Made by a program: the position numbers and the translations under genes
The notes under the pieces: generated by a model
What the model saw: only the letters and a program-made list of their open reading frames with translations
Told to the model about the DNA's origin: nothing
Database searches by the model: none
Assembly (NCBI GenBank): GCA_016784175.1
Contig: JADHVC010000002.1
Location: 330-64,329 of the forward strand
Direction of reading: 5' to 3'
From: Patescibacteria group bacterium
GTDB taxonomy: Bacteria > Patescibacteriota > Patescibacteriia > Patescibacteriales > BS150m-G62
DNA length: 64,000 nucleotides
Part shown: positions 9,077 through 57,689 of the stretch, piece after piece
How positions within the stretch are numbered: the first letter of the stretch is position 1
Layout: the number at the start of each line of letters is the position of its first letter

Positions 9077-9328
9077 TTATGGGTACTTAATCGTAGTGTC
9101 AAAACTTCTATTCCGCGAGTTGAATGCTCCTTCATTAATTCTCCGAAAAGTTTTTGCTATGAAAACTGCTTCTTTTGTTTGTGCATGCGTAGCCAGCTTT
9201 TTGTTTATTAAAGAGTCAAGATGCATGATATCACCTAGCTCTGTTGCTTCAGATTCAACATAGACTCGTTTGGAGGAAGCCCGTCCGCCGTTAGTAAGAG
9301 TGCCTGTAATAATCCAGTAGTTTGCCAT
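9077..9328 (-). CDS. Hypothetical small protein (83 aa)
   Basis: ORF with a GGAGA SD 5-6 nt upstream of the internal ATG (MANYWIITG...). GC is visibly higher than the flanks. No motif recognised. Confidence 0.4.
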   Translation of the reverse strand: MANYWIITGTLTNGGRASSKRVYVESEATELGDIMHLDSLINKKLATHAQTKEAVFIAKTFRRINEGAFNSRNRSFDTTIKYP

Positions 9329-9456
9329 TTTTATCTCCATCGTTAAGTGTGTGGTTACATTGTATTAGAAAATACCTATTTAAAAATTAGGCAATAAAAA
9401 GATCGATTCTACTACTATCTAATCAGTTTTATTTGTATATGTCAAATACTAGGTCT

Positions 9457-9479
9457 ATAATTACTCACTATATCTATAT
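9457..9479. mobile_element. Solo terminus relic (23 nt) of the foldback element
   Basis: ATAATTACTCACTATATCTATAT compared with the element terminus GTAACTACTCACTATATCTACAT (copy 59921-). About 20 of 23 positions match. Confidence 0.55.
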
Positions 9480-9528
9480 ATTTTTTAAATTTCTTGCTTA
9501 TTACCCTAAAATGAGTTTAAATTAGATT

Positions 9529-10644
9529 ATGGAGAATTTAATAAAAAATATTGAAATATTACGCGAGCAAGTTATTAAAACTCATACTGCTCTAGATATC
9601 GAAGGTAAAAAATCGGAGCTAAGAGATTTAAAGCGCCTCATTAGTGTGCCTGATTTTTGGAATAATCGTGAAAAGGCAGTAGAAGTTTCTAGAAAAGCAG
9701 AAGACTTAGAAAAGGTAACGGGTAAATGGGACAAGCTTCGACAGGACATAAGGTCGCTAGAAGAATTCGTTGCTTATGCCAGTAAAGAAGGGGATGATTC
9801 TGTTTATGACGAGTCGAATGCGATGTATGAAGAATATAAGCAGCTTTATGATGAGTTGGAATTCGGAGTACTTTTTTCAGGTAAATATGATGAAAGTAAC
9901 GCGGTCATTTCTGTGCATGCTGGTTCTGGTGGAGTTGATGCACAAGATTTCGCTCAAATTTTAGAAAGAATGTATTTGCGATATTGCGAGAAAAAGAAAT
10001 TCAAAGTGATGATGGTGGATAGGGTTGATGGGGGAGAGGCAGGCATTAAAAGCAGTTCTTTTGAAGTAAGGGGTAGTTTTGCTTATGGTAATTTGAAAGG
10101 TGAGGCAGGTATTCACAGGTTAGTGCGAATTTCACCATTTGACGCGGAGTCCATGCGACATACTTCATTTGCTTCGGTTGATGTTATTCCTGTTATCGAA
10201 GAAACACAAGATATTATTATTAATGAAAGTGACCTACGGATCGATACCTATAAGTCAGGCGGACCTGGTGGGCAAAGTGTGAACACGACCGACTCTGCTA
10301 TAAGGATTGTACATATTCCAACAAATACAACAGTTACTTGCCAGACAGAACGATCACAACATCAAAATAAGGAAACCGCTTTTAAAATTTTAAAATCAAA
10401 ACTTTATAAATTAGAGCAAGATAAACGAGAGGCCGAGGAAGCAAAGTTACGCGGAGAAGTTGAAAAAGCCGATTGGGGTAAGCAGATTCGGTCATATGTT
10501 ATGCAACCTTATAAGATGGTTAAAGACCATAGAACAAATTTTGAAACACAAGACATTGACGGTGTGCTAGAAGGAGAGATCGAAGGATTTATTGTAGCTT
10601 ATCTTAAGGGAGAGATCACAAGCGAAAAAATAATGCAGACATAG
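9529..10644 (+). CDS. prfB: Peptide chain release factor 2
   Basis: SPF tripeptide (RISPFD), GGQ motif (SGGPGGQSVNTTDSA) and RSQHQNKETA. One uninterrupted ORF with no internal TGA or frameshift site. Confidence 0.92.
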   Translation: MENLIKNIEILREQVIKTHTALDIEGKKSELRDLKRLISVPDFWNNREKAVEVSRKAEDLEKVTGKWDKLRQDIRSLEEFVAYASKEGDDSVYDESNAMYEEYKQLYDELEFGVLFSGKYDESNAVISVHAGSGGVDAQDFAQILERMYLRYCEKKKFKVMMVDRVDGGEAGIKSSSFEVRGSFAYGNLKGEAGIHRLVRISPFDAESMRHTSFASVDVIPVIEETQDIIINESDLRIDTYKSGGPGGQSVNTTDSAIRIVHIPTNTTVTCQTERSQHQNKETAFKILKSKLYKLEQDKREAEEAKLRGEVEKADWGKQIRSYVMQPYKMVKDHRTNFETQDIDGVLEGEIEGFIVAYLKGEITSEKIMQT

Positions 10645-10655
10645 TGAGCAGTTAC
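10621..10655. mobile_element. Fragment (terminal 35 nt) of the foldback element overlapping the prfB 3' end
   Basis: AGCGAAAAAATAATGCAGACATAGTGAGCAGTTAC matches element ends (compare 61804-61838, GCGCTCAAAAATAATACAGACATAGTGAGCAGTTAC). The prfB stop codon TAG (10642-10644) lies inside it. Confidence 0.75.
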
Positions 10656-10699
10656 AACAGAAAATTATTGATGAGGCTGAAAAGATAAACAAATAAAAA

Positions 10700-10748
10700 A
10701 GTCGCTATTGCATAAAAGCTTTATAGCGACTATTATTTTTTTTAAAAA
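10700..10748. terminator. Bidirectional rho-independent terminator
   Basis: AGTCGCTAT (10700-10708) pairs with ATAGCGACT (10723-10731). An A-run lies upstream and ATTATTTTTTTT downstream. It sits between convergent prfB and 10759..11721(-). Confidence 0.7.
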
Positions 10749-10758
10749 AGAACTGTTA

Positions 10759-11721
10759 TTACTTTCTTTTCCATACGTTTTTTGTTTCTATTTCTAATTC
10801 GACGATTTCGCCAGCTGAATCAGTGGATACGAACCAAATATTCCACCAACTACTAATGAATTCTAGGTCACGTCGTTTTACAAAGTTTTGGATATCGGCA
10901 AGGGTGACCGGAAATTTATTTTCATCATGACTTCCTTTACCAAAGAAAAACCGAGTATCATTGTCAATAAATTTACCCCATTTTTCAGGCAATTGTTGTT
11001 TTAATAATTCTACTCCTTTTTCTAGTTTTTCTTTGGTTTTAGCACTTTCAAGAACTAATTTTCGCATAATCATATTACTTTGTTCTTTGTTAAGCGTAGT
11101 GCTTCGCCCGCTATCCAAGATGGTTGAAATCAGAACGGTCGAAAAAGCCAAACTTTTTTTATCTTGTGCAATTTTGGCTAAATGAGGAGTCCGAGAGAAT
11201 TGTCGAATTAACCAATCGGGATAGGCATAGCGTTCCTGAAAAATGTTGTTTATTTCTTGAAACTTATTGCTGAATAGCTGATCTCCGAACCATTCATTTT
11301 GGTTTGTAGCACTAACAAGTTCTGATAATTCGATTTCTTTGTTTATTTGCCACGCACTATTCGTATACGTTGGGTCTTCAAGCAATTTACTGATTCTTGT
11401 TAATTCTGCTACATGTCCCCAACCCAAACGAAAGGCGATAATTAAGCCTTCAGATTGCACATAGATTGAGGCTTTTTCAATGTCTTGACTAAATTTAAAT
11501 GCTAAGCCAAGGCTTATTATTCCAACCACATTTTGCATGGCTTTGCGTAAATTTTCTTCGTGTACGATATCATAATACTTTTTCGCAAACCCTATTGTTA
11601 AGTCTACCCCTTCTTGTTCTGCCTTTTTAAAAAAAGGGTCCTTGAGCTGACCAGATTTTACTCCGTGCTCAAGGACTTGTGTTAAGAAGGGGCGGAGATC
11701 CTTTATAGTAATTCCGCCCAT
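10759..11721 (-). CDS. Hypothetical protein (320 aa), 4th gene of the J-domain operon
   Basis: ORF with AAGGAG 6 nt upstream of the ATG. Elevated GC (43 % in one sampled line). No recognisable motif. Confidence 0.55.
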   Translation of the reverse strand: MGGITIKDLRPFLTQVLEHGVKSGQLKDPFFKKAEQEGVDLTIGFAKKYYDIVHEENLRKAMQNVVGIISLGLAFKFSQDIEKASIYVQSEGLIIAFRLGWGHVAELTRISKLLEDPTYTNSAWQINKEIELSELVSATNQNEWFGDQLFSNKFQEINNIFQERYAYPDWLIRQFSRTPHLAKIAQDKKSLAFSTVLISTILDSGRSTTLNKEQSNMIMRKLVLESAKTKEKLEKGVELLKQQLPEKWGKFIDNDTRFFFGKGSHDENKFPVTLADIQNFVKRRDLEFISSWWNIWFVSTDSAGEIVELEIETKNVWKRK

Positions 11722-11748
11722 TTTAGTCTCCTTTGTTTTTTTTGCTGT

Positions 11749-12498
11749 TTATGGAGCTAGCGGTACAAACATATCTTCGTCGCAGATTGTCGACTGCTCT
11801 ACTCCTATCATCTTTTGTGCATGCTTGGTAAGCGCAAACACCATTCTCGATAACGACGCCTCGCTGATGCCGTTATTGTGTTTGACGAGGCTTTGAGCCA
11901 TCTTTGGAGCAACTTCACTTATAGCAAGAAAAAGTATTTCTATGCTTCCATGTTCCAACAAAGCACTCGCCATATCAATATCAATATTGGTAGATTCAGT
12001 ATGGGCGCATTCAGTTCCTGTATCATCATAAATATTAATCTCAATTGACTTTTTTAACTCTAGTGGTGTCCAACCAATAAAAGTGAATTTCAGAAAAGAT
12101 CTGGCTCCTTCATTAGCAAGAATAGCTTTTATTATTTCCATTTGTCTTTGTTTGTTATTGCAAGACAGAACGAAATGTGCCAGTGTATTGAGGGCATTTT
12201 CTTGAAGTCTTTCGGGACATTCCAAGAGCTTAGCTTCCCAGTTGACTGGCTCAGTCTCAAGTGCTTTTGCAATATCTATTGGTGATAAAAGATCAGTGAG
12301 AATTGACGCCGTTGTGAAATCGTGGGATCTTAAGATATTCGCTTGTTCTACGATATTAAGCGCTCTAACAATTGGCTCCGTTGCCCTATCGCCATGTTCG
12401 CTTGCGAATTTGATAATTAGTTGTTCTGCTGCTTTTCCTTGACCTTGGTTGGCCAGTTCTTTTATTTTGCTAATAACCAAGTCGGTATCTCTATTCAT
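11749..12498 (-). CDS. Hypothetical protein (249 aa), 3rd gene of the J-domain operon
   Basis: ORF with AAGGAG 6 nt upstream of the ATG, 3 nt after the upstream stop. One sampled line is 50 % GC. Looks predicted-helical and repeat-like; no motif recognised. Confidence 0.55.
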   Translation of the reverse strand: MNRDTDLVISKIKELANQGQGKAAEQLIIKFASEHGDRATEPIVRALNIVEQANILRSHDFTTASILTDLLSPIDIAKALETEPVNWEAKLLECPERLQENALNTLAHFVLSCNNKQRQMEIIKAILANEGARSFLKFTFIGWTPLELKKSIEINIYDDTGTECAHTESTNIDIDMASALLEHGSIEILFLAISEVAPKMAQSLVKHNNGISEASLSRMVFALTKHAQKMIGVEQSTICDEDMFVPLAP

Positions 12499-12501
12499 GT
12501 T

Positions 12502-12984
12502 CTACTCCTTGCCCATTTCTTCAAGTTGAATGTCGGCATAAACATCACCACTGCTGATGGTGCTTCCAGTAAGGACAAACTCATCCTGATTCGCAAAGAT
12601 AAAGTTAAGAATAAATGCGGTTTGAAGTGCGTCTTTGTAGGATTCTTCAAGCTCTTTTACTAAGCTAGCACATCTTGGATTTGCGTGAATTGTTTTTTTA
12701 ATGATCTTCCAATCTGGGAAAGCATTTAAATATATCCAAGATAGCCACTTTTCACGATCAACATATTTTACACTGCCAAATACGGCAATCGCCGCATAGG
12801 TTGGGAATTCTACGACAAGATGCGAAGATTCCTTGATTGTCTGAAAGATTACTTTACAGTATTCGGTTAGTCTTGTGGGGTTATCGGGATCATCCGACAT
12901 TTGAATCTCTTCTAAAAATGATTCAAAATTATCAGCGATTGTAGGGTGTAAGTGAATAGGGTGTAAGTGAATTTTGATGCTCAT
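12502..12984 (-). CDS. Hypothetical protein (160 aa), 2nd gene of the J-domain operon
   Basis: ORF with GGAGA 9 nt upstream of the ATG, 3 nt after the J-domain gene stop. The N-terminal IHLHPIHLHP comes from a 15-nt direct repeat. Confidence 0.5.
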   Translation of the reverse strand: MSIKIHLHPIHLHPTIADNFESFLEEIQMSDDPDNPTRLTEYCKVIFQTIKESSHLVVEFPTYAAIAVFGSVKYVDREKWLSWIYLNAFPDWKIIKKTIHANPRCASLVKELEESYKDALQTAFILNFIFANQDEFVLTGSTISSGDVYADIQLEEMGKE

Positions 12985-12987
12985 TCT

Positions 12988-13281
12988 TTAATTCTCCATT
13001 ACAGGTTTAAAAGTGTTAAGATACTCGAACCATATTGTCAGAGTTACCTTTGTTGGGTTATCAGTTACGCGGGCTGCTCTTTCTTTTTCGTACTCTCCTT
13101 TCTTCTGGGGGTTTGTTAGAGTTTTGTATGTATCTATGATTTTCTCAAGTTTTTTAACTGCTTCGGGATCATCGTTTCGATCTGGATGGTACTCCTTCAA
13201 TAAAGAGTGATAAGCCTGCTTGATTTCGGCAGGTGTTGCTTTATTTGTTAGTCCTAAAATAAAATATAGATCGTGTATCAT
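12988..13281 (-). CDS. Stand-alone J-domain protein (97 aa)
   Basis: DLYFILGLTNKATPAEIKQAYHSLLKEYHPDRNDDPEAVKKLEKIIDTYKTLTNPQKKGEYE is a canonical DnaJ J-domain with the HPD motif. There is no G/F or zinc-finger region. Confidence 0.85.
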   Translation of the reverse strand: MIHDLYFILGLTNKATPAEIKQAYHSLLKEYHPDRNDDPEAVKKLEKIIDTYKTLTNPQKKGEYEKERAARVTDNPTKVTLTIWFEYLNTFKPVMEN

Positions 13282-13383
13282 ATATTTTTTCCTTATTTAA
13301 TTGTGTAAAGAACAAAGGAGAAAAGTTATTCTCACTAACCTTATTTATAGAACTATATAAAAACTTTGTCAAGTTAAATGCAT

Positions 13384-13467
13384 GTAACTGCTCACTATGT
13401 CTGCATTATTTTTGAGCGCATATGGAATATGTAGTAATTTTTAGCAGAATTTAACTTAAAAAAAATT
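13384..13467 (+). mobile_element. Fragment (left ~84 nt) of the foldback element
   Basis: GTAACTGCTCACTATGTCTGCATTATTTTTGAGCGCATATGGAATATGTAGTAATTTTTAGCAGAATTTAACTTAAAAAA... then diverges from the consensus. Confidence 0.85.
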
Positions 13468-13475
13468 AACTTAGG

Positions 13476-13504
13476 TTGAATATTAGTTGTTATTGTTCTA
13501 CTAT
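13476..13504 (+). promoter_or_regulatory. Sigma70-like promoter candidate for dnaE
   Basis: TTGAAT (13476-13481), a 17-nt spacer, then TACTAT (13499-13504), 49 nt upstream of the dnaE ATG. AT-rich context makes chance matches common. Confidence 0.3.
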
Positions 13505-13552
13505 TAAGGATAGGGTTTTAGCCAAAATTAATATTTTTTAAGTTTAAATAAA

Positions 13553-16500
13553 ATGTCTTTTATCCATTTACATGTTCATTCGCATTATTCTCTTCTGGAT
13601 GGCTTGTCTAGGTTTAATGAATTGATCGAAATTGCACAGGCAGATGGAGCAAATGCTGTTGCTTTAACTGATCATGGTGTAATGTATGGCATAATCGAGT
13701 TTTATCAAGCTTGTAAAAAGGCGGGCATTAAACCTATTGTTGGTTTTGAGGCATATATGGCCAAGGGTTCAATGTTGGAAAAGGTGACCAAGCAAGATGA
13801 AAAGCGTAATTATCATATATTACTTTTGGCTCGGAACAATCAGGGCTATAAAAATTTAATCAAACTTACTTCTATTGCACATCTAGAGGGTTTTTATTAT
13901 AAGCCACGCATAGACTGGGAAACACTTCAAAAATATTCCGAAGGGCTAATTGCTTGTTCGGCTTGTTTGGGTGGAGAAATACCACAATTAATTTTATCTG
14001 ACAAATACGATAAAGCCAAAAAAAGAGCACAAGAACACGAAGAGCTTTTTGGAAAGGGTCACTATTACTTAGAAATTCAGCCTCACCCTACTATTCCAGA
14101 GCAAGATCAAGTAAATCAAAAAATAATTCAAATAGCTAGAGAGACTGGTATTCCATTGGTTGCTACAAACGACTTGCACTACTTAAAGCCTGACGATTAT
14201 GACGCTCAGGACGTTCTTTTGTGCTTGCAAACAAAAGCCAAGAAGAATGATGTTGGTAGGTTTAGTCTTCATGGAAAGGATTTTTACTACAAGAGTGAGC
14301 AGGAAATGCGAGAGGCTTTCCTAGATGTTCAAGAGGCCGTAGACAATACTCAAGTTATTGCAGATATGTGTGATGTTGAAATCGAATTAGGTAATATTCA
14401 GTTGCCTTCTTTCGAAGTGCCAGAGGGTTTTGATGACTTTACATACCTAGAAAAGATTTGTCATGACGGTTTATTGGTTAGATATGAAAAAGATTATAAT
14501 AATGTAGACGAAGAAGTGCGTACCAGATTAGACTTTGAGTTATCGGTTATTAAGAAAATGGGGTGGCCATCATATTTTTCTATCGTTGCTGATTTTGTAA
14601 TGTGGGCTAAGAATAGAGGGATCGCTGTTGGGCCTGGGCGTGGATCTGCTGCTGGGTCGCTAGTTTGCTATGTGATAGGTATCACAAACTTAGATCCGAT
14701 TAAATACGAACTCCTTTTTGAGCGTTTCTTGAATCCCGAGCGTGTATCTATGCCCGATATCGATATGGACTTTTCGGATAATCGAAGAGAAGAAGTTTTG
14801 CGGTATGTTGAGCAAAAATATGGTAAGGATCATGTAGCGCAAATTATTACATTTGGAACAATGGCGGCTCGAGTGGCTATTCGTGATGTTGGTCGTGTCC
14901 TAGATATTCCATTGGCTTTATGTGACAAGTTGGCTAAATTAGTTCCAATGTTTTCTACTTTAAGTGACGCGCTAGAAAATACAGCCGAATTTAAAGATCT
15001 TTATGACAAAGATCCTCAGGCCAAACAAATTGTTGACTTTTCTCTGCGACTAGAAGGTGTGGCAAGGCATGCATCCACTCACGCTTGTGGTGTTTTGATA
15101 ACAAAAAATCCTCTAACAGATTACACCCCGCTACAATTTGGTTCGCAAGAGGGGGGTGACGGGCAACGAGGTATTGTATCGCAATATTCACTTCATCCAG
15201 TAGAGGACTTGGGTCTGCTTAAAATGGATTTTTTAGGTTTAAAAAACCTTACAATAATTGAGTCTGCTATTCGAATTATTAAAGAATCCAATGGCGTTGA
15301 AATAGATATTGAAAAAATACCTCTTGATGACAAACTTGCATATAAATTATTCCAAGATGGAGAAACAACAGGTGTCTTTCAATTCGAGTCATCGGGAATG
15401 AAGCGCTACTTAAAAGACTTGAAACCAACCGAGCTGGAAGATATTATCGCTATGGTGGCCCTCTATCGTCCTGGACCAATGGAGTGGATTCCAGATTTTA
15501 TTGCCGGTAAACATGGCACAAGGACCATCCAATATCTACATCCTAAGCTAGAGCCAATTTTAAGAAATACTTATGGAGTAGCAATTTACCAAGAGCAAGT
15601 TATGCGTATGGCAAGAGACTTGGCTGGTTTTAGTATGGGTCAAGCAGACGTTTTGCGTAAGGCGATGGGTAAAAAGATTGTAAAGTTGTTGGCTGAACAA
15701 AAAGATAAGTTCTTGAACGGGTGTGAAGATAATAACATTGATAGGCGACTCGCTGAACAAATTTTTTCGTTTATTGAACCTTTCGCGGGTTACGGTTTCA
15801 ACAGAAGTCACGCAGCCTGTTACGCTATGATTGGCTATCAAACAGCCTACCTAAAGGCTCACTATCCGGCAGAATTTATGGCTGCTTTATTAACTGCCGA
15901 TCAGCAGCATATCGACAGAATATCGATAGAGATTGACGAATGCAAGGAGATGGGAATAGATGTATTGCAGCCTAATGTTAATAAATCTTTTGAGTCGTTT
16001 ACAGTTGTTAAAAATACAGAAACAGGTAAGAAAGAAATACGTTTTGGTTTAAGGGCGATAAAAAATGTTGGAACAAATATCTCTGAATTTATCATCAAAG
16101 AGAGGATAGAAAATGGAGAATTCTTGGATCTAAGCGACCTATTGGAGCGAGTTATTAATAGAGATATGAACAAGAAGTCTTTAGATAGTTTGATCAAATG
16201 CGGGGCAATGGATGATTTTGGTGATCGAGGAAAATTAATAGCGAACATGGATAATTTACTTGAGTTTAGTAAAGAAGTGGGTAAACTTAAAGCTAATAAT
16301 CAAAATAGTTTATTTGGTGATGTGACTGGTGTAAATAGTATAAATAAGGTTAGGCTGGATAAAACTGGTGTGGTAGAAAAGCAAGATAAGTTAAGATGGG
16401 AAAAGGAACTTCTTGGTCTGTATATTACCGAACATCCGTTTAACGAATATAGAAAATATCTAGAAGGTTTTTGTGTAAATTTGCTTGATTTGCAGGGCTG

Positions 16501-17068
16501 TATCGACGAAACTGATGTCACAATAGCTGGCATCATCTCTACAATAAAAAAGATTACCACCAAGGCAGGCGATCCTATGCTTTTCGTGCGTCTAGAGGAC
16601 CATGTAGGAAGTACAGAGATTTTAGTTTTTCCGCGAATATATGCAGAAACTCAGCATATCTGGCAAGCAGGTAATATTATTGCTTGTTATGGTAAAATAT
16701 CTGATAAAGATAATGAAAGGAAGGTGTTAGCCAACAAGGTAATAGCGCTTAGTCTAGATGCTATTGATGGTCAAATGCAACGGTTCAAAACAGAGATTCC
16801 ACAAAAAGGCGCAAAGCCTGCATATAGGGCTAGTTATATAAAAAAAGATAATTCTCTTAAGTTAATTTTTGTCCAAAAGTGCTCACCTGAACATCTCTCC
16901 GCTTTAAAGCTTATATTAGACTCAAATCGTGGCAGCGACAAAGTTTATCTAAAGATTTTTAATGGTGATGGTCATAAAATTGTTGAAACAAATTTCTTGG
17001 TTAGCAATGGAAAAGCGTTAGTCGATAATATAGCAACCAAGTTTGACGGAATAATAAAAGTGGCGTAG
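13553..17068 (+). CDS. dnaE: DNA polymerase III alpha subunit
   Basis: 1171 aa. PHP domain start FIHLHVHSHYSLLDG. Polymerase core motifs (PDIDMDF, GLLKMDFLGLKNL, NRSHAACYA). C-terminal OB-fold-like region. Confidence 0.95.
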   Translation: MSFIHLHVHSHYSLLDGLSRFNELIEIAQADGANAVALTDHGVMYGIIEFYQACKKAGIKPIVGFEAYMAKGSMLEKVTKQDEKRNYHILLLARNNQGYKNLIKLTSIAHLEGFYYKPRIDWETLQKYSEGLIACSACLGGEIPQLILSDKYDKAKKRAQEHEELFGKGHYYLEIQPHPTIPEQDQVNQKIIQIARETGIPLVATNDLHYLKPDDYDAQDVLLCLQTKAKKNDVGRFSLHGKDFYYKSEQEMREAFLDVQEAVDNTQVIADMCDVEIELGNIQLPSFEVPEGFDDFTYLEKICHDGLLVRYEKDYNNVDEEVRTRLDFELSVIKKMGWPSYFSIVADFVMWAKNRGIAVGPGRGSAAGSLVCYVIGITNLDPIKYELLFERFLNPERVSMPDIDMDFSDNRREEVLRYVEQKYGKDHVAQIITFGTMAARVAIRDVGRVLDIPLALCDKLAKLVPMFSTLSDALENTAEFKDLYDKDPQAKQIVDFSLRLEGVARHASTHACGVLITKNPLTDYTPLQFGSQEGGDGQRGIVSQYSLHPVEDLGLLKMDFLGLKNLTIIESAIRIIKESNGVEIDIEKIPLDDKLAYKLFQDGETTGVFQFESSGMKRYLKDLKPTELEDIIAMVALYRPGPMEWIPDFIAGKHGTRTIQYLHPKLEPILRNTYGVAIYQEQVMRMARDLAGFSMGQADVLRKAMGKKIVKLLAEQKDKFLNGCEDNNIDRRLAEQIFSFIEPFAGYGFNRSHAACYAMIGYQTAYLKAHYPAEFMAALLTADQQHIDRISIEIDECKEMGIDVLQPNVNKSFESFTVVKNTETGKKEIRFGLRAIKNVGTNISEFIIKERIENGEFLDLSDLLERVINRDMNKKSLDSLIKCGAMDDFGDRGKLIANMDNLLEFSKEVGKLKANNQNSLFGDVTGVNSINKVRLDKTGVVEKQDKLRWEKELLGLYITEHPFNEYRKYLEGFCVNLLDLQGCIDETDVTIAGIISTIKKITTKAGDPMLFVRLEDHVGSTEILVFPRIYAETQHIWQAGNIIACYGKISDKDNERKVLANKVIALSLDAIDGQMQRFKTEIPQKGAKPAYRASYIKKDNSLKLIFVQKCSPEHLSALKLILDSNRGSDKVYLKIFNGDGHKIVETNFLVSNGKALVDNIATKFDGIIKVA

Positions 17069-17103: not shown

Positions 17104-17292
17104 ATAACTGCTCACTATACCTGCATCACTTTTTCGCTTAGGATGGAATGTTGGGCAATTTTTTACGCACAATTTAACAAAAATTTTAAACTCGCTTCAC
17201 TCAAACATAAAATTTTTTAAGTTAAATTCTGCTAAAAATTACTACATATTCCATATGCGCTCAAAAATAATGCAGGTATAGTTAGCAGTTAC
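17104..17292 (-). mobile_element. Foldback MITE-like element, full copy (189 bp)
   Basis: ATAACTGCTCACTATACCTGCAT...ATGCAGGTATAGTTAGCAGTTAC. Reverse orientation relative to 39109-39298. No clear flanking direct repeat. Confidence 0.85.
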
Positions 17293-38130: not shown

Positions 38131-39019
38131 ATGTGTGCTTTTGAAATATTAACTCGTGGTAATGGTTCTAGTGGTCTGATTGCCTCACTATCCCAATTCA
38201 CATTGGCCTGCGGATACACTGTTTTAGCAGGCACAGATCGTGGGGTTGGTTATTCTGATGTAAACCAAGACTGTATCGGAATAGATGTTGAAAATAATAG
38301 AATCGTCGTAGCTGACGGTCTTGGGTCAGATAAGGATAGCGAACTAGCGGCTAAGCTCGCTGTCGAATGCATCCTTAAGGGTCAAAAATCATTCCATGAA
38401 GTACAAAAAGAATTTTGTGGTTTAATTAACGGTGCAGATCGGACTGGCACTCTAGCGAATGGTTTTTCTGGGCAAATAGAGGGTGATACATGCCTTATCG
38501 CGTTAGAAATACAAGAAATCATGGGACAATTTAAAAAGCTTTCAATTGCGCAAGCTGGTGATGTAAAGCTAATTGTTGTAAGACCAAGTGTTATATATAA
38601 CCCAATTTTTACAACAGTTGATCAAACAGTGGCCCAAGAAGCTTATGATAGTGGAGAAATAAAAGATAAAAGACAGTACTATTGTTCCTTCTCAAAAGCA
38701 GATAGTAACGTCCACTTTCTTAACTAGTGAAGTAAAAATGACACAATTTTTTGTTAAGCGGGGTGATATTGTGTACATATATAGTGATGGTATAGGTGAT
38801 AATTTGCTTCCTGAAGAAATATCTATTATAACGCGTGGGCAATATTATGCTGACGCTTTTAGAGCGATCATAGACACTGTTACTGGAAGGATGTTGCGCT
38901 ATGGACTCGAGAGTCATTCAGGACAGTATCATTTCTCAAAAATATTTGGCCCATGTAAAGATGGTTTTTGGCAACCACCCAAGGCGGATAATCGTTCTTT
39001 AGTGGCAATTCAAATATAA
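38131..39019 (+). pseudogene. PP2C/SpoIIE-like Ser/Thr phosphatase split by a frameshift
   Basis: The first ORF (ends 38727, frame 1) carries GYSDVNQDCIG, VVADGLGS and AQAGDVKLIVV. The second ORF (38738..39019, frame 2, open from 38663) carries GDIVYIYSDGIGDNLLPEEI and DNRSLVAIQI. Together they make one PP2C-like domain. AGGAG lies 7 nt before the ATG at 38131. Confidence 0.5.
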
Positions 39020-47483: not shown

Positions 47484-47510
47484 ATATATAAAGTATACTA
47501 TATAGTATGT

Positions 47511-47541: not shown

Positions 47542-47552
47542 TTGAGGTTAAT

Positions 47553-48599: not shown

Positions 48600-48657
48600 G
48601 ACTTTATCCTTTTAGTTTTGAGTTTGATGAGGTATGCAATTTTATTGCGTTTTAATG

Positions 48658-49197: not shown

Positions 49198-49289
49198 ATA
49201 ATTTTCTCCATAGGTTGTGAATAGGTTGTGAAAAGGACAAATCAAGTAAAATATACCAAAAGATCATTAAATATGCAAGTAAAAAAAAC

Positions 49290-49490
49290 ATAACTACTCA
49301 CTATGTCTGCATTATTTTTAAGCGCATATGGAATATGTAGTAATTATTAGCACAATTTAACTTAAAAAAAATATGTTTGAGTGAAGCGAGTTTAAAATTT
49401 TTGTTTAAAATTTTTGTTAAATTGTGCGTAAAAAATTGCCCAATATTCCATCCTAAGCGAAAAAGTGATGTAGATATAGTAAGTAGTTAC
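49290..49490 (+). mobile_element. Foldback MITE-like element, full copy (201 bp, internal 13-nt duplication)
   Basis: ATAACTACTCACTATGTCTGCAT...ATAGTAAGTAGTTAC. Contains an extra TTTAAAATTTTTG unit. AAAAAAAAC flanks both sides (49281-89 and 49491-99; low complexity). Confidence 0.85.
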
Positions 49491-49520
49491 AAAAAAAACA
49501 CTCTCATAAGTTGAGAGTGT
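49491..49520 (-). terminator. Rho-independent terminator (minus strand) after 49546..51588
   Basis: ACACTCTCA (49498-506) pairs with TGAGAGTGT (49512-20). The A-run at 49491-98 gives the T-tract on the minus strand. Confidence 0.7.
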
Positions 49521-49545
49521 TATTAATGAAATATTTTATGTTGTA

Positions 49546-51588: not shown

Positions 51589-51606
51589 AGTTATTATTTA
51601 TTTATG

Positions 51607-52773
51607 CTATAAGGCCTTTGACATCATATTCTTAGTTTTAAAATTTATGATATTATATTTTTGTTTTGTTAGGATATTTTTATATAACCTCTCTGTTTTA
51701 TCCGTAATTTTATCCCAGTCGTAATTCTCTTCCACAACTTGCTTGCCCTTTTCTTTATATTTTTTTACTAATTTTGGTTTTTTTAATAAGTAGTCTAATT
51801 GTTTTTTCATACTAGGAACATTCTTATTTTCAAAATAGAATCCATTATTCAAAACTGCTTCTCTATTTTCTGGGATATTACTCACTAGTACGGTATTCTT
51901 GCTTGCTAAGGATTCAAGTAATGCGATCGACAATCCTTCTGATGTAGAGGGTTGAACGAATAGATATGCATTAGAGAATAGCTCAACTAGGTTGCTGCCA
52001 GTTTGATTGTTGGTAAAGATAATGTTTGGATTTTTCTGCGCAATTTTTTTAAGATAAGTTACATATTCGTTTGTGTATGAGCTTGCCCCGACAATTACTA
52101 GTTTCTTGTCAGTTTTTAGAAGGTTATATGCATTAATTAAGAAGTGTATTCCTTTATGCTCAATCAATCTTGAAACGCTTAGTATGTAGCTATCTTTTGT
52201 AAGGCCCCATTTCTTCTTTATTGCATGGGCATTCTTTGATTGCATAAGCTCAACTCCATTTGGAATATAGATTGCGTCAGTATTGTATGTTTTTTTTGCG
52301 TATCTAGCTAAGCCTTTCGAAACTGTAATTGTTTTGTTTGGTAGTGTACAAGCAACAAACTCTCCAAATCGCAAGTATGTTCTAGCCAAAAATCCCCATT
52401 TTTGATGATAGTAGTCTTGACAATGAAAAGTTGCAATTATTTTAGTTCTTGGTTTCAATACTCGTGCAAGCCAAATTAGAGAAGATGGTCCAATCGAGTG
52501 AAAATGAATTATATCTGGCTTTTGGGTTATTAGATGCAGACAAGCTAAGAAAGTGTGACTAATTGCTTCTAGGTGCTTTTTCTTCATGCTCGGTAAGCTA
52601 ATTAAATTCACTCCCTTGTAGCTGGTTTTATTTTTAGCGGTATAGGTTGATCGAGTATAGATTGTTACATTGTTCCCACGTCTAACTAGACGGGTTGCAA
52701 GCATTTCAACATGCTTTTCCACCCCACCTCCAATTGACGGTATTCCTTTTTGACCAATTATGTGTATGTTCAT
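51607..52773 (-). CDS. Glycosyltransferase family 4 (GT-B)
   Basis: MNIHIIGQKGIPSIGGGVEKHVEMLA at the N-terminus. C-terminal SEGLSIALLESLASKNTVLVSNIPEN. Confidence 0.8.
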   Translation of the reverse strand: MNIHIIGQKGIPSIGGGVEKHVEMLATRLVRRGNNVTIYTRSTYTAKNKTSYKGVNLISLPSMKKKHLEAISHTFLACLHLITQKPDIIHFHSIGPSSLIWLARVLKPRTKIIATFHCQDYYHQKWGFLARTYLRFGEFVACTLPNKTITVSKGLARYAKKTYNTDAIYIPNGVELMQSKNAHAIKKKWGLTKDSYILSVSRLIEHKGIHFLINAYNLLKTDKKLVIVGASSYTNEYVTYLKKIAQKNPNIIFTNNQTGSNLVELFSNAYLFVQPSTSEGLSIALLESLASKNTVLVSNIPENREAVLNNGFYFENKNVPSMKKQLDYLLKKPKLVKKYKEKGKQVVEENYDWDKITDKTERLYKNILTKQKYNIINFKTKNMMSKAL

Positions 52774-52859
52774 TTTAACTGTAATCTTGATGAATATTTG
52801 CTAAAAATTAATTTGTATGACCTTAGCATATAAGAAAAAAAATGTCAAGGGTTTTTTAG

Positions 52860-53048
52860 GTAGATACTCACTATACCTCCATTATTTTTGAGCGCATATG
52901 GAATATGTAGTAATTTTTAGCACAATTTAACCTAAAAAATTTTATGTTTGAGTAAAGCGAGTTTAAAATTTTTGTTAAATTGTGCGTAAAAAATTGCCCA
53001 ATATTCCATCCTAAGCGAAAAAGTGATTCAGGCATAGTGAGTATCTAC
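52860..53048 (+). mobile_element. Foldback MITE-like element, full copy (189 bp) with co-varying termini
   Basis: GTAGATACTCACTAT...ATAGTGAGTATCTAC. Both termini carry the same variant (GATAC instead of ACTGC). Flanks are TTTTTTAG and CTTTTTAG (7/8). Confidence 0.9.
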
Positions 53049-53052
53049 CTTT

Positions 53053-54300
53053 TTAGAAACTTGAATTTTTCTTTGCATATTCTTGCTTTTTTAATTCAAT
53101 TAACTTCGAATAAATCCCAGCAATACTGTTATAATAGTCTTGCTTATTAAAGGATTTAGCTTTTAAATAGGCATTCTCGCCAATTTCCTTTAAGTTGTAA
53201 TTACTAAGTTCCATTATCTTGAATTTTAAGTCATTTACATCTCCAAGTTTAAATAGGAAGCCGTTTACGCCATGCTCAATTATCTCTTTAATTCCGCCTA
53301 TGTTAGTAACTATTATTGGTTTTTTTAACGCCATTGCCTCCAATATTGTAAGTGGCATATTCTCTGGCCAAATAGACGGCACGATAACAGCTGTAGCATT
53401 GTTAATAATGTTTTTTAGACTATCTCCATATTTTGGGCCCACTAGTTTAATATTTGTAATATTCCTGCTTTCGATTATCTCTGAATATTTTTTATAATCC
53501 GGTCCTGTACCAACTATAATGAGACTAGACTTGTGATCGCTAAATGCATCAATGAGAACATCTATCCCTTTTTCTTCCGATATTCTTCCAAAATACAAAT
53601 AATAGCTTTTATCATGTTTATTTGAAAAATCTCGTTGATTATTGATATTACCTAAATTGGTGAAATTATTCAAGGTTTGAATTTTATTTGAGTTCACTCC
53701 AAATTTAATGCAAGTATTTCGAAGGTAATCAGATGGAGTAATAAACAGATCAACTTTTTCGTAGGTTTTTAAAAAAACATTATGCAAATAAGCCTCTAAC
53801 ATAGCCAATAAGCTTTTTTTGTAAGAGTTTTTAGCACACTTTTTTAATAAACAATTATAATATTTTTGACCAATACATGAATTACATATTTTGCCTTGGC
53901 TAAAAAGCTGATAATTCGGACAAATTATTTTGTAGTCATGAAGAGTCATAACCATTGGAATATTGTGCTTCTTGATTGTATTTATGATTGCTGGGGATAA
54001 CTGATGATAAATATTATGCATATGCACAATGTCTGGCCGTTCTGCCTCTAGTAAGCTATCTAATTTTTTTTGAGCATCAAAATTATAAAATATTTTAAAG
54101 ATATTCACTAAGCTAAATTTTTCCAGATTAACTTGTTTGGCAAAATATTTACCGTATTTGGAAAATTCATTGCGCGAATCATTCATGGAAAAATGAATTA
54201 CTTCGTGTCCATGAGATTTTAGTAATTCTGACAACTCTAAATAGTGGCGCTCAGCCCCACCTCGTAAATAATGAAATTTATTAATTTGAAGTATTTTCAT
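53053..54300 (-). CDS. Glycosyltransferase family 4 (GT-B)
   Basis: MKILQINKFHYLRGGAERHYLELSELL at the N-terminus. C-terminal ENMPLTILEAMALKKPIIVTNIGGIKEII. Confidence 0.8.
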   Translation of the reverse strand: MKILQINKFHYLRGGAERHYLELSELLKSHGHEVIHFSMNDSRNEFSKYGKYFAKQVNLEKFSLVNIFKIFYNFDAQKKLDSLLEAERPDIVHMHNIYHQLSPAIINTIKKHNIPMVMTLHDYKIICPNYQLFSQGKICNSCIGQKYYNCLLKKCAKNSYKKSLLAMLEAYLHNVFLKTYEKVDLFITPSDYLRNTCIKFGVNSNKIQTLNNFTNLGNINNQRDFSNKHDKSYYLYFGRISEEKGIDVLIDAFSDHKSSLIIVGTGPDYKKYSEIIESRNITNIKLVGPKYGDSLKNIINNATAVIVPSIWPENMPLTILEAMALKKPIIVTNIGGIKEIIEHGVNGFLFKLGDVNDLKFKIMELSNYNLKEIGENAYLKAKSFNKQDYYNSIAGIYSKLIELKKQEYAKKNSSF

Positions 54301-54326
54301 ATAAGATACTGATTAGTGCAAATTAA

Positions 54327-55322
54327 TTAACTCTTAAAAAAGACACAAGAATGACATTTGGTTTTTTTTTCAGGTTTAACTCCAGTGTTATTAAAATAAT
54401 CTCGTGCGTTTCTATAATCCTCATTGTTGTAGATATCGGATACAGGGCTGGTGGCTACATTCCCAAAGTTATTTTCAGTGTGTTCATAGAAATTGCAACA
54501 TGGTTGTAATGTACCGTCCCATTTAAATGATGGATTACCGTACAACCAAAAACAATTCTTTTTTATTGGTGTTGGAACTTTATATTTTGGTGTTACATCG
54601 TCTTTCAGTGTAAATAAATCAACCTTCAAACTTTCTACAAATTTTTTCATTTCAATGATTTCATTCTCGGTTGTATGTTTAAATCTAATCATTTGTATTT
54701 CTAGTTTAGGGTACTTCGAATTTTGTATCTTTTTTTCGCTATTTATTAATCTAATGTTTTTTATTACGGTTTCAAAGTTTCCGCCTACCCTATAGTCATT
54801 GTATATTTTGCTATTTGGACCATCTAAGCTAACAATTAAGTGAGTTAATTTATTTTTTACAAGGTTGGCAGCTAGTGGTTCTGGCAAGTAGTTTAAATTC
54901 GAACTAATTACAGACCCGATTTTTCTTTTTGTTAGATATTCTATCATTTCGGCAATTTGTGGATATATTAAAGGTTCACCAAGGGAGTATAGTGATACTT
55001 TTACTAAATATTTTTCTAGCTCATTAATAATTTTTTCAAATAAGCTAAAATCCATTTGCCCAAGTTCTTTATTATCATTTAGCTCTGCTCTATCGGCAGC
55101 ATGCAAACAGCCCTTGCAACGAAGGTTACACTTATTTGTTGGCTCTATTTTTACGAAATACGGTTTAGATCTGACTGTGACCTTACCAAGTCTTCGTTCT
55201 AAAAGTGCTAGTACAATATTAAACATCTTAGTGATATTTAGGTATGGCATGGTACTACTCCAGTGCCTTTTAACAACGCTTAAAAGCAATGTATTATAGT
55301 TTTTGTATTGCAGGTTGATCAT
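54327..55322 (-). CDS. Radical SAM enzyme with SPASM-like C-terminal Cys cluster
   Basis: CNLRCKGC (CX3CX2C) near residue 65. C-terminal cysteines are CFW...QPCCNF...KCHSC. Confidence 0.8.
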   Translation of the reverse strand: MINLQYKNYNTLLLSVVKRHWSSTMPYLNITKMFNIVLALLERRLGKVTVRSKPYFVKIEPTNKCNLRCKGCLHAADRAELNDNKELGQMDFSLFEKIINELEKYLVKVSLYSLGEPLIYPQIAEMIEYLTKRKIGSVISSNLNYLPEPLAANLVKNKLTHLIVSLDGPNSKIYNDYRVGGNFETVIKNIRLINSEKKIQNSKYPKLEIQMIRFKHTTENEIIEMKKFVESLKVDLFTLKDDVTPKYKVPTPIKKNCFWLYGNPSFKWDGTLQPCCNFYEHTENNFGNVATSPVSDIYNNEDYRNARDYFNNTGVKPEKKTKCHSCVFFKS

Positions 55323-55354
55323 TTGTTAATTTAAAAGTAATATTAATATATACT

Positions 55355-56743
55355 ATGATAAATTATTTAATCATAAAAATTAAAAATAGTCAAGAGCTAG
55401 CCTTGTTTTCTGTTACTGCTTTGTTGCTCTTCTTGCTCATGTTCTTTTTGGGTACTACAACGCTCGCAATTAAATTCATCCTAATTATTATTATTGGCTT
55501 GATTCCAGTGTTCTTTAAGAAGCCAATTATTTTTTTATATTTTTTGTTTCTTGTTACGCCAAGTTTACGCGTTCTTACTCGAGATGAACTAATATTCCAA
55601 AATTATGGAATCAATTTTAACGTATTAATTCACTTGTCTCTGCTATTTTACGGATCTTTGATGGCTTGGCGGTCAAGAAGTCAGTTACTAGTTTATGTTA
55701 AAAAGTATCAATTTATTAGTTATTTTGCTGTTTTTTTATTTTTATCTGGTGCAAGTATTTTTTATTCGCTAGATAGGCCAAGTACATTAGATCAGTTTGT
55801 TAGGTTATGTAGTTCGTCTTTTGGAATCTTTTTCTTTGCCTTACTCGCAATAAACACAAGAAAAGATTTTTATAATCTTATTTATTGCATAGTGCTAGGT
55901 TTAATTGTTCCTAGTATAGTTGGGTACTACGAATTTTTTGCGGGTACGGGTTGGTATGACCCGTCGATGAGAACTTATAGGATCGACAGTACTTTTACAC
56001 ACCCAGTTATTTTTTCTGGATATCTATTGTTGGCTATGCCAATTTTATATGCTTTAGTGGAGGACAAGATTAAAAATAGAGTAAAAGTTGGTTTGTTCGC
56101 GTTCTTAGGTAATAACCTATTCTTTGTGATTGCAAGCTTGACACGTGGTATTTGGAATGCAGGGGCTGCAATGTTACTTGTTTTTGGTGGCATAAAGAGC
56201 AGGAAGACACTTGTGGCTGGAATTTTAATCTTTGTTCTGACTTTTATGTTTATCGAACCTCTCAAGCAAAGAGTTTATGATACATTTAGACCTAGTCCAG
56301 ATAGTTCTTTTCAAACAAGACTAGATATTATAAAGACAACCTTTCCTGCTTTTTGGAGTGCACCATTTTTGGGTTATGGTTTTGGTGCATTTGAAGTTAT
56401 CCACTTGCGTTACAATGAAGATGCACGTTTTTGGCCGTCGCTACAAGCACATAACGATTACCTAAGAATTTTAATTGAGCTTGGTGTAATAGGTGCAATT
56501 CTATATCTATCTATTTTTATTTCTTTGTTATTGCTTATTAGAAGGTTATATTTAGGTGCTGATAGTAAAGAACTTCAAAATTATTATTTCAGTCTAGTTT
56601 TAATTTGGATAGCGGCTGGTACAATTTCCTTAAGTGATAATTTTTTAAGAATAGTAGAGTTCCAACAGATCGCCTGGGCTTACACTGGAGCGGTCTTAGC
56701 CTTTGGGTTAGTAAAGAAAGAAAGTACGCACAAAAAAAGATAG
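55355..56743 (+). CDS. O-antigen ligase/polymerase family (Wzy_C) membrane protein
   Basis: At least 10 hydrophobic helices. LQAHNDYLRILIELGVIGAILYLSIF is the Wzy_C signature. Confidence 0.75.
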   Translation: MINYLIIKIKNSQELALFSVTALLLFLLMFFLGTTTLAIKFILIIIIGLIPVFFKKPIIFLYFLFLVTPSLRVLTRDELIFQNYGINFNVLIHLSLLFYGSLMAWRSRSQLLVYVKKYQFISYFAVFLFLSGASIFYSLDRPSTLDQFVRLCSSSFGIFFFALLAINTRKDFYNLIYCIVLGLIVPSIVGYYEFFAGTGWYDPSMRTYRIDSTFTHPVIFSGYLLLAMPILYALVEDKIKNRVKVGLFAFLGNNLFFVIASLTRGIWNAGAAMLLVFGGIKSRKTLVAGILIFVLTFMFIEPLKQRVYDTFRPSPDSSFQTRLDIIKTTFPAFWSAPFLGYGFGAFEVIHLRYNEDARFWPSLQAHNDYLRILIELGVIGAILYLSIFISLLLLIRRLYLGADSKELQNYYFSLVLIWIAAGTISLSDNFLRIVEFQQIAWAYTGAVLAFGLVKKESTHKKR

Positions 56744-56932
56744 GTAACTACTCACTATACCTGCATCACCTTTTCGCTTAGGATGTAATATTGGGCAATT
56801 TTTTACGCACAAGTTAACAAAAATTTTAAATTCGCTTCACTCAAACATAAAATTTTTTAAGTTATATTCTGCTAAAAATTACTACATATTCCATATGCGC
56901 TCAAAAATAATGCAGGTATAGTGAGTAGTTAC
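56744..56932 (-). mobile_element. Foldback MITE-like element, full copy (189 bp) with perfect 8-bp flanking direct repeat
   Basis: GTAACTACTCACTATACCTGCAT...ATGCAGGTATAGTGAGTAGTTAC. AAAGATAG occurs at 56736-56743 and again at 56933-56940. The left copy contains the TAG stop of 55355..56743. Confidence 0.92.
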
Positions 56933-56980
56933 AAAGATAGTGTAGTTAGTCTTAGTAAGAATAAAAATAGCGAATATAAA

Positions 56981-57021
56981 AAAAAGAGGCGATCAGTCTA
57001 AGACTGATCGCCTTTGTTGTT
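56981..57021. terminator. Bidirectional rho-independent terminator
   Basis: GGCGATCAGTC (56988-98) pairs with GACTGATCGCC (57002-12), loop TAA. An A-run lies upstream and TTTGTTGTT downstream. Confidence 0.8.
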
Positions 57022-57080
57022 GGTGGCTTACGCCGCCTTTTGTTTGAGGTTGTGTTTATTTATTTGCAACCACCATTGCT

Positions 57081-57689
57081 CTAGATCTGGTCGGGAAATA
57101 CCCAACCATCGGCCAACGATTCTGCGATGGCCGTGCTGACTTTGTTTTCGACCACTTTGAACCGAATTTCAAACTTGTCTCCTTTTTGGAAGAGCATCGT
57201 GTTTTTTTCACCGCGTCCACCACAAGCCCACTCCATTATTCCCCAATAAGCATTGGGGTCCAGTTTTCCAACTGGAAGGGTAGAGAAATTTACCCCCATA
57301 ATGAAAGATGACGACTTGTCGCGGCTGTTCTTAAATGTGAATGTTGCTGGGAGTCGATCCTGAAAGTCCCCATTTGCAACACTCCGTGGTGCTCGCCAGC
57401 CATTCATGGCTGTCCCTAAGGTCGGGTAACTATGTGCATACATTTCCAACCCTTTCCACATAAACTGGCCGGGTGGATGTATGCCCTGTTTCGTCACGCG
57501 GTTCCAGAGCACTTTCAGCTGGACATCCCCGTTTTCCAACATTGTTATTTTTCGGAACGAATCGTTAATCATCGTTCCGCTTTGCTCCGAAAAGCTTGAA
57601 CTTTCATTCCAGTTCTCAGCATGTGCTGAGCCGGTGAAAACCAGTAGCACGAATGCCATTACAGCCAACACTTTTCTCAACGCTTTCAT
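57081..57689 (-). CDS. Secreted protein of unknown function on a GC-rich islet
   Basis: Signal peptide MKALRKVLAVMAFVLLVFTGSAHA. GGGAGA SD 6 nt upstream. Sampled 60-nt lines are 45-48 % GC against about 33 % in the flanks. Confidence 0.65.
   Translation of the reverse strand: MKALRKVLAVMAFVLLVFTGSAHAENWNESSSFSEQSGTMINDSFRKITMLENGDVQLKVLWNRVTKQGIHPPGQFMWKGLEMYAHSYPTLGTAMNGWRAPRSVANGDFQDRLPATFTFKNSRDKSSSFIMGVNFSTLPVGKLDPNAYWGIMEWACGGRGEKNTMLFQKGDKFEIRFKVVENKVSTAIAESLADGWVFPDQI

Follow-up and report, generated by a model that had tools for sequence, protein, structure and literature searches.

Shine-Dalgarno motifs on a minority of operons suggest a conserved dual mode of translation initiation in a Patescibacteria genome

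Background

Why should a few operons of a bacterial genome be preceded by Shine-Dalgarno (SD) motifs, when most of the genes around them have none? The question is raised by a stretch of 64,000 nucleotides (hereafter the window) from contig JADHVC010000002.1 of a Patescibacteria group bacterium (assembly GCA_016784175.1). An initial annotation of its sequence distinguished AT-rich genes that lack an SD from small groups of genes that combine an SD with elevated GC content, and interpreted the latter as at least five patches acquired horizontally from SD-using donors. In the amelioration model, genomic islets are recognised by their atypical composition. Here we report that the two classes of genes are real, and that two of the SD-bearing units, a divergent relative of the cold-adaptation operon atcJABC and the purine synthesis pair purE-purC, carry their SDs also in other Patescibacteria whose other genes are mostly SD-less. 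The reading that we prefer, with a probability of about 0.6, is that translation is initiated in two modes, a conserved arrangement in which selection maintains the SDs on a minority of operons.

The window has a GC content of 34.9% and a gene content typical of Patescibacteria/Parcubacteria: it encodes giant surface proteins and many glycosyltransferases, PrgI and VirB4-like type IV secretion genes, comFC, DUF4012, and DUF5667 beside a sigma factor. Near-identical contigs from ENA/Logan (up to 112,948 bp), which differ from the window by few single-nucleotide polymorphisms (SNPs) and one homopolymer indel, were used to lengthen the sequence to 75.9 kb with 53 genes. For comparison we used a contig of a sister genome (L087), two further Patescibacteria (L088 and L089) and four other genomic contexts of the atc operon (L090/L091, L092, L094 and L095).

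Results and discussion

Two classes of translation starts

For each gene of the lengthened contig, with the start taken from the NCBI or ENA gene calls where known, the best duplex energy was calculated between the upstream region from -20 to -3 and the anti-SD tail ACCUCCUUA; independently of energy, an SD motif was defined as GGAG, AGGA or GAGG ending 5-10 nt before the start. The energies are bimodal, with nine genes at -5.4 to -8.7 kcal/mol and the other 44 at -3.3 kcal/mol or weaker, and the motif definition picks the identical nine genes as the energy ranking. They form five units, namely atcJABC, purE-purC, a PP2C-type phosphatase gene, an 83-aa ORFan and a secreted 202-aa ORFan (Table 1). 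Every SD listed in the initial annotation is among them, including that of purE and the weaker one of the J-domain gene, and all 16 plus-strand starts that it had given as SD-less (2251, 3631, 4075, 4786, 7416, 9529, 13553, 29099, 30653, 31800, 35701, 42878, 44179, 55355, 58679 and 60412) form anti-SD duplexes of -2.8 kcal/mol or weaker, in line with its view that most genes of this genome do without the motif. It had also singled out comFC as a partial exception. A GAGG (8085-8088) does stand 9 nt upstream of an ATG at 8098, but the gene callers choose a TTG at 8077, which has no SD.

Table 1. Positions of the SD-bearing genes, of genes used for comparison and of the dispersed repeat (window coordinates; duplex energy against the anti-SD tail in kcal/mol; GC3, G+C fraction at third codon positions)
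Feature	Position	Strand	SD motif, position and distance to ATG	Duplex energy	GC3	Remarks
atcJ, 97-aa J-domain protein	12988..13281	minus	AAGGA 13290-13294, 8 nt	-6.2	0.337	
atcA-like, 160 aa	12502..12984	minus	GGAG 12994-12997, 9 nt	-6.4	0.366	
atcB-like, 249 aa	11749..12498	minus	AAGGAG, core GGAG 12505-12508, 6 nt	-8.0	0.344	
atcC-like, 320 aa	10759..11721	minus	AAGGAG, core GGAG 11728-11731, 6 nt	-8.7	0.318	
purE, AIR carboxylase family, 179 aa	48658..49197	minus	GGAGA 49205-49209	-6.4	0.333	
purC, SAICAR synthetase, 348 aa	47553..48599	minus	AAGGA 48607-48611	-5.4	0.364	
PP2C-type phosphatase gene	38131..39019	plus	AGGAG 38119-38123	-8.2	0.27	Pfam PP2C_2
83-aa ORFan	9077..9328	minus	GGAG 9335-9338, 6 nt	-6.4	0.345	
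Monocistronic cassette of the 202-aa ORFan	56987..57701	minus	GGGAGA 57696-57701		0.532	ORF 57081-57689; intrinsic terminator 56987-57013
dnaE, SD-less example	13553..17068	plus				leader ATTTTTTAAGTTTAAATAAA
comFC, ambiguous start	8077..8859	plus			0.287	
Dispersed repeat, full copies	17104-17292, 27208-27396, 39109-39298, 45223-45410, 49290-49490, 52860-53048, 56744-56932, 59921-60109, 61650-61838					
Dispersed repeat, solo arms	2048, 10633, 13384, 26205; 9457					the arm at 9457 is degenerate

SD-like strings could in principle arise at random in more G-rich sequence, with starts then being chosen behind them by the annotation. If a loose energy cut-off (-4.5 or -5.4 kcal/mol) is applied alone, 16% and 13% of decoy in-frame ATGs are positive, which is about the rate of the real starts. 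With the spacing requirement, however, a core is found at 9 of the 53 starts (17%) compared to 3.5% of 316 internal in-frame ATGs, a fivefold enrichment (binomial p=8e-5), and in 2.4% of intergenic 20-mers; the distance from core to ATG is 6-9 nt in all nine genes. The SD signal rests on this spacing and on the bimodality of the energies, not on a loose cut-off. Besides, four consecutive genes of one operon all have the motif, NCBI and ENA/Logan calls concur on most starts (the NCBI annotation shares those at 9328, 38131 and of purE), the decoy rate is flat with GC3, and the motifs are conserved in orthologous leaders of the sister genome. An origin of the SDs by chance from composition is ruled out by the flat decoy rates, the spacing enrichment and the conserved leaders, and chance combined with annotation artefacts is hardly credible as a general explanation.

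The 44 SD-less genes have leaders with 80-90% A+T, and their initiation regions (-30 to +30) have a median GC of 0.21 and a fold energy of -3.1 kcal/mol. The corresponding values for SD-bearing genes are 0.35 and -4.2 kcal/mol, and internal coding windows reach -7.4 kcal/mol. In Bacteroidota, most genes have no SD, and their start regions are AU-rich, of lowered GC and with little structure (PMC3155529). The SD-less, weakly folded starts of Prevotella and Flavobacterium are similar to those of the window, although the phylum is different and the SD minority described here consists of specific operons (atc and pur) conserved across lineages. In Flavobacterium, too, a minority of genes reportedly still bears an SD. 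In the dual mode that we propose, about 83% of genes would be initiated independently of the SD from very AU-rich, unstructured leaders in the Bacteroidota style, and the other 17% or so by classical SD:anti-SD pairing through a GGAG/AGGA core 6-9 nt from the ATG.

GC content and codon choice

The initial annotation had equated the SD genes with genes of elevated GC, and this holds in part. The median GC3 is 0.344 in SD-bearing and 0.271 in SD-less genes (p=1.8e-5 per gene). Since the genes represent only five independent SD units, the test was redone per transcription unit: the top four of 31 units by GC3 are all SD-bearing (p=6.7e-4, or 3.4e-3 without the 202-aa ORFan). The fifth SD unit, the PP2C gene, has a native GC3 and owes its higher total GC to codon positions 1 and 2. 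Total GC does not separate the classes, as the values of the SD genes (0.37-0.42, and 0.48 in the ORFan) overlap those of SD-less dnaE (0.379), prf (0.383) and a gene for a protein of 2901 aa (0.385). The GC effect is modest except in one gene (57081-57689). Among 245 crudely called genes of 18 Patescibacteria loci, starts with an SD make up 11%, then 18% and then 39% as the local GC3 excess rises, against a flat 8% of decoys.

The ranking of the units speaks for the scenario in which all five were recently acquired from SD-using, GC-richer donors, so that both SD and GC would be leftovers in a non-SD host. The kind of substitution that underlies the GC3 excess can be described more closely. 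In atc and purE-purC, C occurs at 0.18-0.20 of fourfold sites compared to 0.105 and at 0.34-0.42 of pyrimidine-ending (NNY) codons compared to 0.26, while G is not raised at purine-ending (NNR) codons; the excess is mainly a T-to-C shift at third positions. Strand bias was rejected as its cause, as the frequency of C at fourfold sites of SD-less genes is 0.117 on the minus and 0.099 on the plus strand, far below 0.18-0.20. In four lineages, with genomic GC between 0.33 and 0.47, the pur genes prefer C over T at NNY codons (0.42, 0.44, 0.40 and 0.45, compared to 0.26, 0.29, 0.25 and 0.37 in other genes). A preference that recurs in this way looks like selection on codon choice and not like the composition of a donor.

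It could be argued from these data that the SD and the C-ending pyrimidine codons both reflect selection for efficient translation, which would say nothing about the origin of the genes. The T-to-C shift without a general rise in GC, its recurrence in pur genes of four lineages and the extreme SDs of the pur genes in L088 and L089 (see below) are all in favour of such an expression class. On the other hand, genes such as atc, purE-purC, a phosphatase gene and small ORFans do not belong to the usual highly expressed set, and MreB and IscS on the same contig are SD-less with ordinary GC3. As the whole explanation we regard an expression class as doubtful, with perhaps one chance in four.

Two other loci stand out in GC3. 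The lowest GC3 of the contig (0.168, with G+C of 0.50 at second codon positions) is found in a 1257-aa open reading frame (ORF) at 31800-35573, which has no Pfam match and whose product is probably a surface protein of low complexity. Three SD-bearing ORFs of a Komeilibacteria locus (L007:3481-6052) reach a GC3 of 0.80-0.87, compared to a median of about 0.46 for the locus, and are a compositional outlier far stronger than any in the window; they may be a foreign island, or spurious products of crude ORF calling.

The purE-purC pair

PurE matches the Pfam family AIRC, with its true ATG at 49197, and PurC has a Pfam match with an E-value of 6.6e-39. The named top homologues of purC all come from Patescibacteria, Parcubacteria, Paceibacterota or Giovannonibacteria, and the best of them is 60% identical, comparable with the best match of DnaE (63%). 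The best purC match lies on the sister contig L087, which is syntenic with window positions 39320-57689 at 50-79% protein identity. In its purC leader the sequence AAAAGGA-AAA--TCATG is retained, and in its purE leader ACAACCyATGGAGAAA upstream of the ATG, while ten SD-less orthologue pairs of the two contigs stay SD-less. The GC3 of the L087 pur genes (0.32-0.34) exceeds that of their neighbours (about 0.27) by the same margin as in the window. In L088 and L089, purE, purC, purH, purB and pyrF have SDs with energies of -9 to -12 kcal/mol amid mostly SD-less neighbours, and the complete 16S rRNA of L088 ends in GGATCACCTCCTTT, i.e. with an intact anti-SD.

The synteny with L087 and the restriction of the named closest homologues to Patescibacteria indicate that purE-purC is not a recent import. 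By the refuting condition that the initial annotation had set itself, its reading fails for this pair, whose homologues sit in sister lineages together with the same GC3 excess, and the scenario of five recent acquisitions is refuted for it.

As an observation on gene content, the window (47553-49197) and L087 possess only purE and purC, and L088 and L089 also have purH, purB and pyrF. The pair in the window is thus a fragment of the purine synthesis pathway, two steps long, and the genome is a reduced one.

The atcJABC operon

The genes that we assign to the atc system are co-directional on the minus strand (13281 to 10759) in the order J-A-B-C, with gaps of 3, 3 and 27 nt, and the SD of atcA sits within the 3' end of atcJ. 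AtcJ matches Pfam DnaJ (3e-18) and NCBIfam AtcJ (1.5e-9); it has the HPD motif (YHPDRN) and the C-terminal motif PX7W (PTKVTLTIW). AtcA-like, AtcB-like and AtcC-like proteins match the corresponding NCBIfam families at 1.7e-12 (under the equivalog cut-off), 2.5e-13 (over positions 6-248 of 252) and 1.5e-15, and the precomputed Pfam matches AtcB_N and AtcB_C concur. The curated thresholds were missed, with 47.5, 50.1 and 57.5 bits compared to cut-offs of 200, 440 and 370, so the three proteins are homologues (E-values of 1e-12 to 1e-15 over nearly the full length), not equivalogs. The operon is a divergent atcJABC, a predicted cold-adaptation system.

In Shewanella oneidensis, atcJABC is an operon in J-A-B-C order that encodes an AtcJ of about 95 aa with the C-terminal PX7W (Maillot et al. 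2019, PMC6715715). The gene order, the short J-domain AtcJ, the PX7W motif and the NCBIfam Atc matches are alike in the window; differences are the scores (50-58 bits compared to cut-offs of 200-440) and the host, which is a Patescibacterium. Among the features of the Atc system are two conserved Asp residues of AtcB for RNA polymerase binding and a cold-sensitivity phenotype.

A word-indexed search with the AtcB-like protein returned self matches only. In an exhaustive search of 1.8 billion representatives, the AtcC-like protein has 66 relatives, with identities of 33-35% for the best; among those with a name, a Patescibacterium and a contig labelled Woesearchaeota are nearest. In the four other atc contexts, which are of the candidate phyla radiation (CPR) type, all four genes have SDs (-5.7 to -12.5 kcal/mol) and the neighbouring genes are mainly SD-less; with the window, 20 of 20 atc genes in five Patescibacteria-type operons are SD-bearing. 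PX7W is retained in three of the four. An SD on all atc genes of four other operons points to a long-maintained trait rather than an unameliorated relic, because SDs and a GC3 excess inherited passively would have decayed at such divergence (33-35% identity). The scenario of recent import, which could otherwise draw on the fact that Atc systems are known mainly from Proteobacteria, has therefore little room for this operon either: none of its proteins has a relative above 35% identity among the 1.8 billion representatives, and SDs occur on at least four other CPR-type contigs.

The same data raise the possibility of an ancient transfer, in which atc and pur would have entered an early Patescibacterial ancestor from SD-using bacteria and kept their SDs since an AU-rich leader never evolved in front of them. 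Consistent with this, in the small number of loci inspected the SD-bearing genes are often biosynthetic or accessory (pur, pyrF, AsnS, DAGK, atc) and an SD is missing from many core genes (sigma factor, RuvC, FtsH, GyrA, ABC transporters), Atc is mainly Proteobacterial, and the initiation regions of SD-bearing genes are less AU-rich. The exceptions are a gene for S1 that is SD-bearing in L094 and dnaE, which is SD-bearing in L001, L006 and L009. The varying SD status of dnaE between CPR lineages makes the loss of SDs look gradual and lineage-specific, not tied to the origin of genes, which speaks against ancient transfer; moreover, the persistent bias for C-ending codons is left unexplained by it. 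We consider it unlikely, though at nearly one chance in three it deserves to be kept in mind.

The surroundings of the operon were considered as well. In the window (10759-17068) atc and dnaE are divergent and separated by 272 nt, and in L090 (6578-8896)/L091, whose DnaE is 54% identical to that of the window, they are convergent and 5-6 kb apart; the nearness of the two in the window and in a distant relative hints at an old linkage. A comparison of dnaE neighbourhoods in 80 GTDB genomes gave a best relative of 63% identity with an unconserved neighbourhood, and was uninformative for atc. The perfect 31-nt inverted arms that flank the operon (10626-10656 and 13383-13413) made it a candidate for a composite transposon. 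This was rejected, as both arms are members of a dispersed repeat family and point outwards from the operon, and their similarity does not exceed that between arms of unrelated copies.

The 202-aa cassette, the PP2C gene and the 83-aa ORFan

The case for recent acquisition is different for the monocistronic cassette with its own SD and terminator at 56987-57701. The 202-aa protein has a signal peptide and is predicted to be secreted, the total GC of its gene is 0.478, and at fourfold sites both G and C are raised. A word-indexed search among 5.8 billion proteins returned a self match only, tblastn against plasmids and phages gave no match, neither this ORFan nor the 83-aa one belongs to a family of Pfam, NCBIfam or PHROGs, and the AlphaFold2 model from the single sequence was unusable (predicted local distance difference test score, pLDDT, of 44). 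An independent Logan contig carries the identical cassette arrangement.

In the sister genome, the same slot beside a Wzy gene (L087:60-770) is occupied by another gene for a secreted protein of 202 aa, with GC 0.50 and GC3 0.54, an SD (AAGGAGAACCA) and a similar terminator (AAAGGCGAT...ATCGCCT followed by a T-run). The GC content of both cassettes is about 50%, compared to 33-35% for the genomes, and their ribosome-binding sites (GGAGAACCA) and terminator stems are similar. Homology of the two proteins was considered and rejected (BLASTP E>7; z-scores of global and local alignments below 1 against shuffles). The slot in the polysaccharide gene cluster suggests a hot spot of cassette exchange, and gene turnover at a syntenic position makes the 202-aa cassette the sole putative recent acquisition that is well supported.

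The PP2C gene has a native GC3, which runs counter to recent import; its absence from L087, where the CARDB and Wzy-TPR genes bound the syntenic site, agrees with such an import. It is a lineage-specific gain or loss, and horizontal transfer is possible. In the window the gene is frameshifted (38715-38740) into 38131-38727 (198 aa) and 38738-39019 (93 aa); as the intact 295-aa form (P0014) exists on another ENA contig, the ORF at 38738 is the C-terminal part and not a separate gene. The frameshift may mark a true pseudogene, or it may be an error of the assembly. For the 83-aa ORFan, which has relatives only among members of a same-species cluster, horizontal transfer is likewise possible.

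No integrase, tRNA target or flanking direct repeats mark any of the SD units in the window. Compared to classical islets, the 202-aa cassette fits with its atypical GC3, its ORFan status and a locus that differs between sisters. Each of the other four units lacks at least one hallmark: their shift in composition is codon-specific or absent, and they have no mobility genes and occur in sister or distant CPR genomes. Of the at least five horizontal patches claimed at the outset, the ORFan cassette is well supported, purE-purC is contradicted and atc is improbable as a recent import. That all five units were recently imported is improbable in our estimation.

Weighing of the evidence

The dual mode of initiation has to be set against several observations that weigh against it. 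About half of the Parcubacteria are reported to lack the anti-SD CCTCCT in their 16S rRNA (Tsurumaki et al. 2022, PMC9297842). Scans of the window for rRNA, tRNA and Rfam families gave zero matches, the window encodes no ribosomal components, and rRNA is absent from the flanks too. The gene calls of the comparison loci are in part crude ORF calls. In loci picked by dnaE alone the link between SD and GC3 is weak (p=0.006, or 0.04 without L007), the GC3 excess of atc is seen in the window and L090 and is absent in L094 and L095, and the enrichment of C-ending codons in atc is inconsistent across lineages. The atc operon has been recorded in 294 reference proteomes, mainly of Beta- and Gammaproteobacteria (bioRxiv 10.64898/2026.09.07.749886), and atc and pur may be of ancient foreign origin.

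As to the anti-SD, the rRNA-side observation of PMC9297842 was the only literature that we found on SD usage in Patescibacteria. It concerns the same radiation and fits the low SD usage here and in several relatives, SD-poor relatives being common among the Patescibacteria compared; it treats rRNA, however, and not gene starts, and L088, which has the same two-class pattern, has an intact anti-SD. That a minority of genes has conserved SDs at the correct spacing is an argument for their continued use in this lineage, and their conservation on atc and pur across SD-poor Patescibacteria suggests that the ribosome still has a usable anti-SD. The statistics of the motif, its conservation between lineages and the synteny are observations; we infer that the SDs would be functional, that the 16S rRNA of the host would carry the anti-SD and what would cause the codon bias.

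In the dual mode, SD status would be a heritable property of particular operons, retained by selection, which would explain why atc and pur have SDs also in distantly related Patescibacteria that are otherwise mostly SD-less. The GC3 excess of atc and purE-purC would fit either a property of codon usage or expression, or initiation regions that depend on an SD for being less AU-rich, and would not be a leftover of a donor. Only the 202-aa cassette would bear the mark of recent import, that is a general excess of G and C together with turnover at a syntenic slot.

A dispersed repeat and strain-level variation

Apart from the genes, the window contains copies of a palindrome of about 190 bp with the termini GTAAC...GTTAC, dispersed over its intergenic regions (Table 1) and similar to miniature inverted-repeat transposable elements (MITEs) or to doublets of repetitive extragenic palindromes that form hairpins (REPINs). 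There are 22 arm matches where none are expected, and nine full copies with a mean column identity of 88%. Each copy forms a single extended hairpin of 76 pairs (-76 kcal/mol), in which changes in one arm are compensated in the other, and almost all intergenic stretches above 200 nt are filled by the repeat. It was not found in L087 or the other loci and corresponds to no Rfam family; its core occurs on a 1.5-kb metagenome contig (L093).

Compared to the 112,948-bp ENA contig, the window differs in the length of a poly-T tract downstream of atcC (10744-10750) and in scattered SNPs (e.g. at 80, 332-392 and 930-947), with a cluster of SNPs in the gene of an S8 protease, and sample L085 has another gene arrangement upstream of the gene with TSP3 repeats. 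These differences represent strain-level variation.

Conclusions

New here are the operon-specific conservation of SDs on atc and pur across Patescibacteria, the occurrence of atcJABC in this radiation and the suggested hot spot of cassette exchange. A small set of conserved operons (the DnaK-linked atc and the purine/pyrimidine genes) might even be translated by a separate SD-dependent channel, tunable apart from the SD-less bulk, for instance by temperature or by the availability of the anti-SD tail, with the C-ending codons as part of the same programme; this is a speculation to which we give low odds, of the order of one in five.

For the annotation of CPR genomes, an SD combined with slightly raised GC is an unsafe flag of foreign DNA, as it would miscall the conserved pur and atc genes as horizontal. 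The GeneMarkS-2 work (PMC6028130) states that only some genes are preceded by a ribosome-binding site with the SD consensus, and its algorithm has separate models for native and atypical genes; this is a framework for gene finding, and SD conservation per operon across the CPR is not addressed in it. Gene finders and start callers need two start models for genomes of this kind, and the disagreement of callers on the starts of purE, the PP2C gene, the 83-aa gene and comFC is due to the two start modes. The Atc J-domain system, described mainly from Proteobacteria, has a divergent branch in Patescibacteria. If SDs are indeed conserved in an operon-specific manner, they would offer a comparative route to the genes that still depend on the anti-SD where the motif is being lost.

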